Made by a program: the position numbers and the translations under genes. Shown one piece after another: positions 34,250 to 35,776 of a DNA stretch of 64,000 bases. Within the stretch, counting starts at the first letter, position 1. Every line of letters starts with the position of its first letter. Source of the stretch: Limnothrix sp. BL-A-16. Its GTDB lineage: Bacteria; Cyanobacteriota; Cyanobacteriia; CACIAM-69d. Where the stretch lies: NCBI GenBank assembly GCA_041937175.2, contig CP166615.1, positions 3,360,001-3,424,000 of the forward strand. The letters are read 5' to 3'. Under the pieces are notes generated by a model. It was given only the letters and a program-made list of their open reading frames with translations. It had not been told where the DNA came from and ran no database searches.

Positions 34250-34391
34250 TGCCTGTCGTCAAATCGCCTGAAACCCTGATTCCACCGTTGCTGGATCGTG
34301 GGGGACAAGGGGCTTGAGCATCTTGTTACAACGACTGGGACATGGAAAATCAATCGTTTTCACCTGATCCTAGGAAATGACGACAGGCCCT
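34247..34391 (+). mobile_element. MITE family A copy; starts on the trpB stop codon, and its right terminus is the IS110 insertion site
   Basis: TAGTGCCTGTCGTCAAATCG...GACGACAGGCCCT, with the final A(G) displaced to 35716 after the IS. Confidence 0.85.
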
Positions 34392-34397
34392 TGTATG

Positions 34398-34624
34398 TGG
34401 AAGGCGGTGGAGCAGGAAGGTTAAGCTCAGGCATAATCGACCCTCTCCCATCCGGTAGAGACTCTGGACAGGCCCTGAAGCTCCGAAGCTTGAGGCTTAG
34501 ATTGAAGAGCCGACCGGAACCCGCCTTCCCGGACACTGCCAGTAGACTGAACAGTATTCAGAGTGACCGCTTGAGCGCTGTCACCTCGGATCAAGCAAGG
34601 GTAGCACTGGGTCAGTGACCGTCC
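34398..34624 (+). ncRNA. Predicted IS110 bridge RNA (target-binding and donor-binding loops)
   Basis: LTG ACAGGCCCT 34468-34476; RTG AGGCTTAG 34493-34500; LDG ACAGTATT 34551-34558; RDG CAAG 34592-34595 (or 34596-34599); each pair brackets a hairpin and is closed by a stem; ends are inferred. Confidence 0.85.
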
Positions 34625-34646
34625 CTCTTTCTTGTCCACCCCAACC

Positions 34647-35660
34647 ATGACTAATCCAATCTATATTCCCCTGGGCATCGACATCAGCAAACACCACTTC
34701 GATGTTGCCCTCTGCAAAGCACCCTCGACCGCTCGCAGCAAAAGTGCCTTTCACACCAGCCAGTTTGCCAACAACGAAACCGGATTTCACGAATTACTCG
34801 CTTGGCTCGAACAACACCAAGTCCACCACATTCATGCTTGCCTAGAAGCAACTAACATTTATGGTCATGAGTTGGCAGCCTTCCTGTATCAACGGGAGCA
34901 GCGGGTCAGCATTGTGAATCCTTCCCAAGTCAAGGGCTATGGGCAAAGTCGCCTGAAGCGCACCAAGAGTGACCAGGCGGATGCGGGAGTGATTGCCCAA
35001 TTCTGTCGTGACCTGACTCCTCCCCTGTGGGAACCGTTACCGGAAGCCCTAGAGCAATTGCAGCAGCTTTCCCGCCGCGTGGAAGCGCTGATCTCGATGC
35101 GGACTGAGGAGAAAAATCGGTTGGACTCTTGCCGTAATCCCCACTTACAGACTGATCTACAAGCCCATATTGCCTATCTGTCGGAGCGGATTGATGACCT
35201 AAAAAAGCTTATGCGCGAGCATATTCGCGCCCATGAAGCCCTTGCTCATCAAAGCCAATTGCTCTGCTCGATTGTCGGCATTGCGGAAACCACCGCCACC
35301 AACTTGTTGGCGGAGATTGGTGTGATTCAGCGCTTTGCTTCCGCTAGACAATTTGCGGCTTTTGCAGGTCTCACTCCCCGAGAATTTATCTCGGGGACAT
35401 CTGTTCGCGGCAAGACTCGATTGTGCAAAATTGGTAATGGTCGGCTGCGAAAAGCCTTCTATTTTCCAGCCTTGTCAGCCTGTCGCTATTGTCCTGAGAT
35501 TGCAGCATTTCGCAACCGATTAGTCGCGGCGGGCAAAACACCCATGCAAGCCATTGGCGCTGTGATGCATAAGCTGGCCAGGATTGTTTTTGGGGTGCTG
35601 CGGCATGACAGACCGTTTGACCCCAGCCAACTGGCAGTCACCACAGAGCCTTGCTCTTAG
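34647..35660 (+). CDS. IS110-family DEDD recombinase/transposase
   Basis: GIDISK, CLEATN and KSDQADA (DEDD RuvC-like); GLTP..FISGTS catalytic-Ser region; [21 protein letters not shown]; frame intact. Confidence 0.96.
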
Positions 35661-35687
35661 GCTTTACATTTTGTCACTTTCAGACCC

Positions 35688-35715
35688 TTGCGCCTCCTCG
35701 GCGAACACAGTATCT
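35688..35715 (+). promoter_or_regulatory. Junction promoter half in the IS110 right end (-35 TTGCGC, 17 bp, -10 TATCT[T])
   Basis: The last T of the -10 box is supplied only by the left end after circularisation (TATCTT); the integrated form reads TATCTA. Confidence 0.65.
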
Positions 35716-35776
35716 AGGCCTGGTTGTCACGCCCGATCGCTTGGGATGGGAATGGCTGATTTTTGCAGCCATATCC

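Follow-up and report, generated by a model that had tools for sequence, protein, structure and literature searches.

The window analyzed here is a stretch of 64,000 nucleotides from the cyanobacterium Limnothrix sp. BL-A-16 (contig CP166615.1, positions 3,360,001 to 3,424,000, forward strand), and positions are counted from its first base. It harbors a 1322-bp insertion sequence (IS) of the IS110 family with, on direct reading, a duplicated CT dinucleotide on either side. The element starts with TGTAT and ends with ACAGTAT, its left boundary reading ...GACGACAGGCC-CT-TGTATGTGG... and its right boundary ...GAACACAGTAT-CT-AGGCCTGG.... A non-coding left end is followed by a recombinase gene, and the whole lies at the edge of a host repeat resembling a miniature inverted-repeat transposable element (MITE; Table 1). 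An original prediction, made by a model from the letters alone, had seen in this segment an intact bridge-RNA recombination system with all of its guide segments readable. The bridge RNA of IS621 was described in 2024 (Durrant et al., PMC11208160; Hiraizumi et al., PMC11208158), and the element in the window is very probably an autonomous, IS621-type insertion sequence of the IS110 group that brings its own bridge RNA. This reading rests on the anatomy of the element, on homology, on covariation in both the helices and the guides, on four identical copies at cognate sites, and on the presence of the element at other sites in other samples.

Table 1. Features of the IS110-family element and its surroundings, in window coordinates.
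Feature	Position	Strand	Basis or remark
MITE-like host repeat, ~147 bp; right end carries the left target, IS at its edge	34245..34391	+	genome comparison
Left target (LT) ACAGGCC	34383..34389	+	identical in 4/4 copies
CT core, left copy	34390..34391	+	direct reading; comparison of copies
IS110-family element, 1322 bp	34392..35713	+	four copies 100% identical over 1-1322
Non-coding left end encoding the putative bridge RNA; starts TGTAT (right donor half)	34392..34646	+	255 nt to ATG at 34647
Closing helix, 5' strand GGAAGGCGG; pairs with 34521-34529	34399..34407	+	minimum free energy (MFE) and centroid folds
Target-binding loop module; outer stems CCGGT/ACCGG and CTCT/AGAG, inner hairpin 34478-34491	34452..34517	+	helices and covariation
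Left target guide (LTG) ACAGGCCCT	34468..34476	+	equals left flank + core, 9/9
Right target guide (RTG) AGGCTTAG	34493..34500	+	last two bases AG read the core
Target-loop handshake guide AU	34501..34502	+	complementary to donor positions 6-7 (A6, T7); AGAT conserved
Closing helix, 3' strand CCGCCTTCC, in the linker between the loops	34521..34529	+	MFE and centroid folds; duplex folding of clade members
Donor-binding loop module; outer stems CACTG/CAGTG and CCAGT/ACTGG, inner hairpin 34560-34587	34534..34617	+	helices and covariation
Left donor guide (LDG) ACAGTATT	34551..34558	+	seven bases equal the right end
Right donor guide (RDG), discontiguous: AU (34590-91), 4-nt bulge, CAAG (34596-99)	34590..34599	+	conserved AU...CAAGG in relatives
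Donor-loop handshake guide GG	34600..34601	+	complementary to target positions 7, 6 (C7, C6)
Recombinase gene, 337 aa from ATG	34647..35660	+	open reading frame list, Pfam, IS621 alignments
Terminator-like hairpin across the stop codon	35645..35665	+	weak: 1 found against a shuffle mean of 2.0
-35-like hexamer TTGCGC in the right end	35688..35693	+	17-nt spacer to -10-like TATCTT, present only at the circle junction
Right end ACAGTAT = left donor half	35707..35713	+	direct reading; relatives
CT core, right copy	35714..35715	+	direct reading; comparison of copies
Right target (RT) AGGCCT, this copy	35716..35721	+	direct reading; copies; comparison of relatives' RTGs

The recombinase gene is the only long open reading frame (ORF) on the forward strand of the element, and a possible upstream TTG start at 34632 would extend it to 34632-35660. 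The protein carries both IS110 domains of Pfam above their cut-offs (DEDD_Tnp_IS110, 4.1e-29; Transposase_20, 2.5e-24). Its best solved relative is the IS621 transposase (8wt6, E 6.5e-68), followed by the ISCro4 recombinase (PDB 9t56, E 9e-66 over residues 9-328), with which the comparison is one of proteins only. As the IS621 reference for the whole element we used an E. coli record annotated "IS110-like element IS621 family transposase" (L034), whose protein matches the PDB IS621 chain along its full length (732.6 bits, residues 1-326 on chain 3-328). Against this copy, 132 of 321 residues are identical (41%). The composite active site of IS621 consists of D11, E60, D102, D105 and S241 (Hiraizumi et al. 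2024, PMC11208158), and the residues aligned with these, D12, E67, D109, D112 and S249, retain all five catalytic identities. Judged by its sequence, in which every feature looked for at that level is present, the element belongs to the IS110 family and, within it, to the IS110 group of IS621-type elements.

The source genome (4.56 Mb in two contigs) was searched for further copies and holds four, with 100% identity along all 1322 bp. All four have CT on both sides, whereas uninterrupted genomic sites of the type ACAGGCC-CT-AAG have a single CT. The repeated core, the flanks ACAGGCC and AGGCCT and the ends ACAGTAT and TGTAT are as the original prediction had read them. The left side of every copy is GACAGGCC-CT; the sequence after the right CT is AGGCCT, AGGATT, AAGCCC or AAGTCC, of which A(A/G)G is common to all. 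Copies at unrelated sites had been named in advance as a finding that would speak against the system; the four copies share their left target. The expectation that the element has its own target specificity holds as well, all four copies lying at GACAGGCC-CT-A(A/G)G and contigs from other samples placing the element at additional sites in repeats of this type. In IS621, the natural target is ATCAGGCCTAC and the target encoded by the loop is ATCGGGCCTAC (PMC11208160); both differ from the sites used here, and the specificity is therefore a different one.

The target belongs to an abundant repeat family with several sub-types, the units of which end in ...(a/t)gacgACAGGCCCTaagccccttg and carry the inverted form at the opposite end; the unit next to the element matches around 45 places in each of two genomes of the same genus. 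The nonamer ACAGGCCCT occurs at 163 genomic sites, most of them at the ends of repeat units, and four of these are the guide-coding sequence inside the IS copies. Sites of the form ACAGGCCCTA(A/G)G number 52 and exact sites ACAGGCCCTAAGCC number 31. In another genome of the genus (G002), the syntenic locus downstream of trpB lacks the sequence corresponding to 34256-35714, so that both the repeat and the IS are later arrivals; this locus was considered as a clean empty site for the IS and rejected, the repeat being missing too. A fifth ACAGGCC-CT-TGTAT junction (C1:1639695, reverse strand) was likewise rejected as an IS remnant, the adjoining AT-rich DNA being unlike the element and about 0.16 such junctions being expected by chance among 163 sites; it may be chance, or the edge of something else inserted at a similar site. 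The sequence GCGATCGC also has a high count in the source genome (5235). Upstream, a tryptophan synthase beta-like ORF (32918-34249, named from its translation alone) ends right where the repeat begins (~34245); it lies on the same strand as the IS, and read-through into the left end is conceivable.

The left end is predicted to encode a bridge RNA of about 220 nt with two internal loops. The helices that had been named for it are Watson-Crick throughout as written (31 pairs), including the inner hairpin stems AAGCT/AGCTT in the target loop and GAGTGAC/GTCAC(C)TC in the donor loop, and the closing helix GGAAGGCGG/CCGCCTTCC is found in both the MFE and centroid folds. A closing duplex of this type recurs, with different sequences, in all eight clade members checked by duplex folding. 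Two covariance models were built, one (R1) from this element alone with the structure as originally proposed and one (R2) from five cyanobacterial left ends. R1 matched just four cyanobacterial relatives, the closest, whose left ends together with that of this element are the five used for R2. R2 was needed for reaching IS621, whose left end it matches with 27.2 bits (E 3e-5). R2 also matches the left ends of elements from Abditibacterium and Neisseria (Neisseria dentiae) and finds matches in 10 of 150 other genomes sampled from the class. Two further elements, L007 and L019, are unmatched by R2 at E up to 0.05, though their guides fit their flanks by eye. Within the window, R1 gives a weak partial match at 17393-17433 on the reverse strand (10 bits, E 0.69), which is most likely chance.

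In the alignment of the 26 matches to R2, standard pairs make up 87.1% of cells, compared with 60.5% in shuffles (none of 500 attaining the observed value), and the figure falls to 30-44% if the 3' partners are displaced by 1-3 columns. Changes on both sides are seen in 25 of 27 pairs. The target-loop helices (1-3) are 89-100% paired, with changes on both sides in 11 of 12 pairs, and those of the donor loop (5-7) are 86-91% paired. The sequence TGTAT, with which the left end begins, is invariant in all ten aligned left ends. The proposal of a 255-nt left end with the two-loop layout of IS621 is thus borne out by covariance-model homology to the IS621 left end together with helix covariation.

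The guides can be assigned position by position. The ten bases GACAGGCCCT (34467-34476) are identical to flank plus core over their whole length, as originally claimed, but only nine of them belong to the guide: in relatives, the leading G is a conserved part of the scaffold and fails to track the flanks. For the comparison with other elements, the last TGTAT upstream of an R2 match was taken as the start of the left end and the preceding nine bases as left target plus core. Of the 26 rows, two had gaps in the guide columns and six lacked TGTAT, leaving 18 usable rows from 15 unique elements. Among these 15, the LTG agrees with the element's own non-core flank at 7/7 positions in seven, at 6/7 in five and at 3-4/7 in three, and mean identity is 6.0/7 for cognate pairs as against 2.69/7 for 204 non-cognate pairs. 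The left targets among the elements compared are unrelated to one another (ACAGGCC, ACGCACC, ACCCAAC, GGTGTCT, TGGTTGA, TCTGCCC and ATCAGGC). On the right side, all 12 unique elements have an RTG that pairs without a break over 4 or more positions, counted from the core. The guides thus covary with the flanks across orthologous left ends, a comparison that had been proposed along with the original reading. With ACAGGCCCT as frequent as it is, the identity of left end and flank in this one element could conceivably be a captured host repeat sequence or an alignment coincidence in a repeat-rich genome; given that the same columns follow the flank at the unrelated targets GGTGTCT-CT, TGGTTGA-CT, TCTGCCC-CT and ACCCAAC-CT, and that the segment occupies the LTG position of IS621 in a shared, covarying scaffold, such an origin is hardly credible.

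The RTG AGGCTTAG is complementary to core plus right flank, CTAGGCCT, with one G:U pair, just as had been claimed. The further suggestion of a naturally extended guide of about 8 nt holds for this copy but not in general, the four copies pairing over 8, 5, 7 and 7 contiguous positions. An effective RTG limited to the core and two or three further bases, as in IS621, with the 8-position match a by-product of landing in a conserved repeat, therefore has to be weighed within the bridge-RNA reading, and we give it a substantial chance, if somewhat below an even one. The right side common to the four copies is only CT-A(A/G)G, five of the 12 relatives' elements pair over only 4 contiguous positions even with wobbles counted, and the RTG of IS621 has four bases (PMC11208160, PMC11208158). 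Yet the loop segment is complementary over 7 positions to the commonest genomic site (CTAAGCC, 31 exact 14-mers), and pairing extends over 9/9 positions in L014 and over 6/6 in L013, where it reaches the contig end. Longer RTGs are, moreover, already reported to covary in some orthologues, with better efficiency when pairing is lengthened from 4 to 7 bp (Durrant et al. 2024, PMC11208160).

The donor side is conserved rather than covarying: AC(A/G)GTAT, CT, TGTAT, the LDG and the AU...CAAGG of the RDG are common to relatives. The LDG ACAGTATT, predicted to match the right end, does so at seven positions; its eighth base is a U opposite core C, which allows only a U:G wobble with the bottom strand. 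A CAAG complementary to CTTG likewise exists, although it had been placed 4 nt off, at 34592. There are two neighboring CAAG tetramers (34592-95 and 34596-99), and the alignment of relatives picks the second as the conserved one. The handshake guides were positioned after PMC11208158. Among the 12 unique elements, the first donor-loop handshake base pairs with target position 7 in ten, and the second with position 6 in three, this element included. The original reading had also stated that the 14-bp donor junction is shared with IS621, and L034 indeed has the heptamer of the right end, the CT core and the pentamer of the left end in the same form as here. The comparison rests on L034 because the donor 14-mer string does not occur in the running text of PMC11208160 or PMC11208158; the bases dA6, dT7, dC8-dT9, dT10 and dG11 that PMC11208158 names for IS621 are consistent with a shared junction.

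Joining the ends in a circle would also create a putative promoter. The candidate, TTGCGC-N17-TATCTT, has a -10 that straddles the junction, with three bases from the tip of the right end, two from the CT core and one from the start of the left end, and scores 7/12, as a consensus match only, in a scan of the computed junctions of 12 elements. The same -10 is found in the cyanobacterial relatives L011, L035, L013, L037, L038 and L048, and in L043, with scores of 7-10 of 12, and in the six cyanobacterial relatives the -35 lies at an identical or adjacent offset. Contigs from three RNA libraries span the left end (X14, 34388-34599; X15, 34371-34836; X16, 34407-34826); DNA may have been present in these libraries, and the contigs show neither RNA ends nor strand and cannot prove transcription. 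Two of the three sets include a few bases of the left flank, which is compatible with weak expression from integrated copies such as is reported for IS621 (PMC13626964). In one X16 contig, the right end plus CT runs into the sequence of a site that is uninterrupted in this genome (ACAGGCC-CT-AAACCC at C1:3085630, reverse strand; compared by eye), and DNA contigs from X1 attach the element to other copies of the repeat. Four identical copies and the presence of the element at other sites in other samples argue for recent mobility.

A number of observations weigh against the bridge-RNA interpretation. The left end folds with a z of only -1.3, 21 of 200 shuffles folding at least equally well, and over a 173-nt core the structure with two open loops (-30.9 kcal/mol) lies 23.6 kcal/mol above the MFE (-54.5 kcal/mol). 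RNAalifold on a raw MAFFT alignment of 10 left ends recovered only the inner hairpin of the target loop (5 pairs), which is why the covariance models were adopted, and the pair counts given above come from an alignment fitted to R2 and are biased towards the structure, though the gap to the slid controls is still large. Between 34000 and 36000, Rfam 15 yielded no family match at E up to 1, which leaves the structure without an independent curated model. The eighth LDG base mismatches core C and can only wobble. Three of the 15 elements fit their flank poorly, with an apparent one-column shift in L013 and L045 and a wrong boundary from the TGTAT rule in L050. The junction promoter is weak, with 7/12 against 10/12 in some relatives, and a scan of 34100-35900 found no sigma-70-like site in the integrated state. 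Finally, neither RNA ends nor a circle were observed in the assembly and contigs, the latter of which drop rare forms. Thermodynamics alone does not single out the two-loop structure; homology and covariation nevertheless support it.

The weaker promoter could also mean that the copies look intact but are no longer mobile, having been amplified recently and then silenced, for instance through decay of that promoter. The assembly contains no instance of the junction 14-mer, and no joints are seen in contigs of the four runs (X14, X15, X16 and X1), where a rare form would be dropped and its lack is uninformative. Silencing is quite unlikely, however: the four copies show zero differences over 1322 bp while the surrounding repeats do differ between copies, the ORF is open with its catalytic residues all present, and environmental contigs carry the element at other sites.

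On the bridge-RNA reading, the element would work much as IS621 does. Transcription would start from the junction promoter of a circular intermediate. The donor loop of the resulting RNA would recognize the joined ends by means of ACAGUAUU and AU...CAAG, which together cover the heptamer of the right end, the core CT and the pentamer of the left end. If the enzymology is that of IS621, as homology suggests, both loops would be held by a recombinase tetramer of the DEDD/Ser type, which would cleave beside the CT cores by way of a phosphoserine linkage and swap strands, with assistance from the AU and GG handshake dinucleotides. This would place the circular form at the margin of a MITE-like repeat, with ACAGGCC-CT on its left and A(A/G)G on its right; the genome contains dozens of such sites. 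The element would accordingly be expected to be active, and programmable through its loops.

The likeness to IS621 extends over most of the system. Both elements have two recombinase domains with the DEDD and Ser residues, a CT core and a 9-nt LTG. The order of parts is also the same (stem, LTG, hairpin, RTG with AU handshake, linker, stem, LDG, hairpin, discontiguous RDG with handshake; PMC11208158), and both have a target inside an abundant host repeat, which in IS621 is a repetitive extragenic palindromic (REP) element (PMC11208160). The differences are modest. The target is ACAGGCC-CT-AAG(CC) here and naturally ATCAGGC-CT-AC in IS621 (PMC11208160), the complementary stretch on the RTG side is longer, and the left end measures 255 nt as against 191 nt in the IS621 copy. 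In the present element the 5' strand pairs with the linker between the loops, enclosing a 5' hairpin and the target loop, whereas IS621 has a free-standing 5' stem-loop of nucleotides 1-33 (PMC11208158). The RDG bulge is 4 nt rather than 3, within a discontiguous pattern common to both (PMC11208160, PMC11208158). The candidate junction promoter lies 7 bp further upstream here, that of the IS621 copy being TTGCAG-N17-TATTAT with the -10 within the left end. Lastly, both donor-loop handshake bases are Watson-Crick to the target here, in place of one Watson-Crick and one wobble pair. ISPpu9 and ISPpu10 of Pseudomonas putida also have a target within a highly repeated intergenic element (PMC12288879; bioRxiv 10.64898/2026.03.19.712850); theirs are REP sequences and not, as here, MITE-like units of around 147 bp, and the likeness is one of descriptions.

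The closest natural relatives are found in Geitlerinema and Oscillatoriales metagenome-assembled genomes (MAGs; 63-64% protein identity), in Spirulina (58%) and on a Kovacikia minuta plasmid (57%). They share the scaffold, including the closing helix, as well as the donor ends and the register of the candidate promoter, and differ in LTG, RTG and targets (ACGCACC-CT-AC, ACCCAAC-CT-ACG and ...CCCG-CT-GAGG). A search for the protein in 60 relatives gave only two matches at E up to 1e-60; within the sampled genomes of the class, the family is sparse. No paper on a cyanobacterial bridge RNA came up in the literature searched; the family-wide analyses of 2024 took in IS110 elements broadly.

Several of the relatives are of interest in themselves. 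In L040 and L056, both of genome G032, the target-binding loop matches R2, but a donor-binding loop is missing, and the next 1.8 kb contain no IS110 ORF; their LTGs, ATAAGCCCT and ATAGACCCT, fit their own flanks, and they may be remnants or parts of larger or split elements. The elements of Neisseria dentiae (L025) and of the Kovacikia minuta plasmid (L035) belong to different phyla, have the same LTG ACCCAACCT, and both follow ...AACCCAAC-CT beside a GTTGGGTT inverted repeat. An element of a Poribacteria MAG (L019) has GT at its left junction and CT at its right one, with an LTG that encodes GT and an RTG that reads CT, a natural core mismatch. On a contig of an Oscillatoriales MAG, a tandem duplication (L012:906-990) comprises the initial 42 bp of the left end and the 9-mer of the flank. 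In L006 (genome G059), ~1.1 kb of sequence separates the bridge RNA and the first ~50 codons from the rest of the recombinase match, which picks up again at residue 50; the gene appears interrupted.

The cyanobacterial clade could constitute a distinct variant of the bridge scaffold, marked by the closing helix and a circle-only promoter with a composite -10, to which the present element would add full Watson-Crick handshakes in both loops and an RTG of 7-8 nt. We consider this doubtful, though less remote than silencing of the copies; if true, the variant could prove to be a natural orthologue of unusual efficiency and specificity, one already at work in a cyanobacterial host. As it stands, the element is a well-preserved but ordinary member of the system described in 2024, longer RTGs having already been published, and the current understanding of bridge systems is unchanged by it. 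It does offer the bridge-recombinase toolbox a cleanly readable natural orthologue, with all guide and handshake positions assignable and a target unlike that of IS621, from a phylum for which tools for genome insertion are limited. It is also a natural example of an RNA-guided insertion sequence living off a MITE-like repeat family, in which dozens of sites stand ready and four are occupied.

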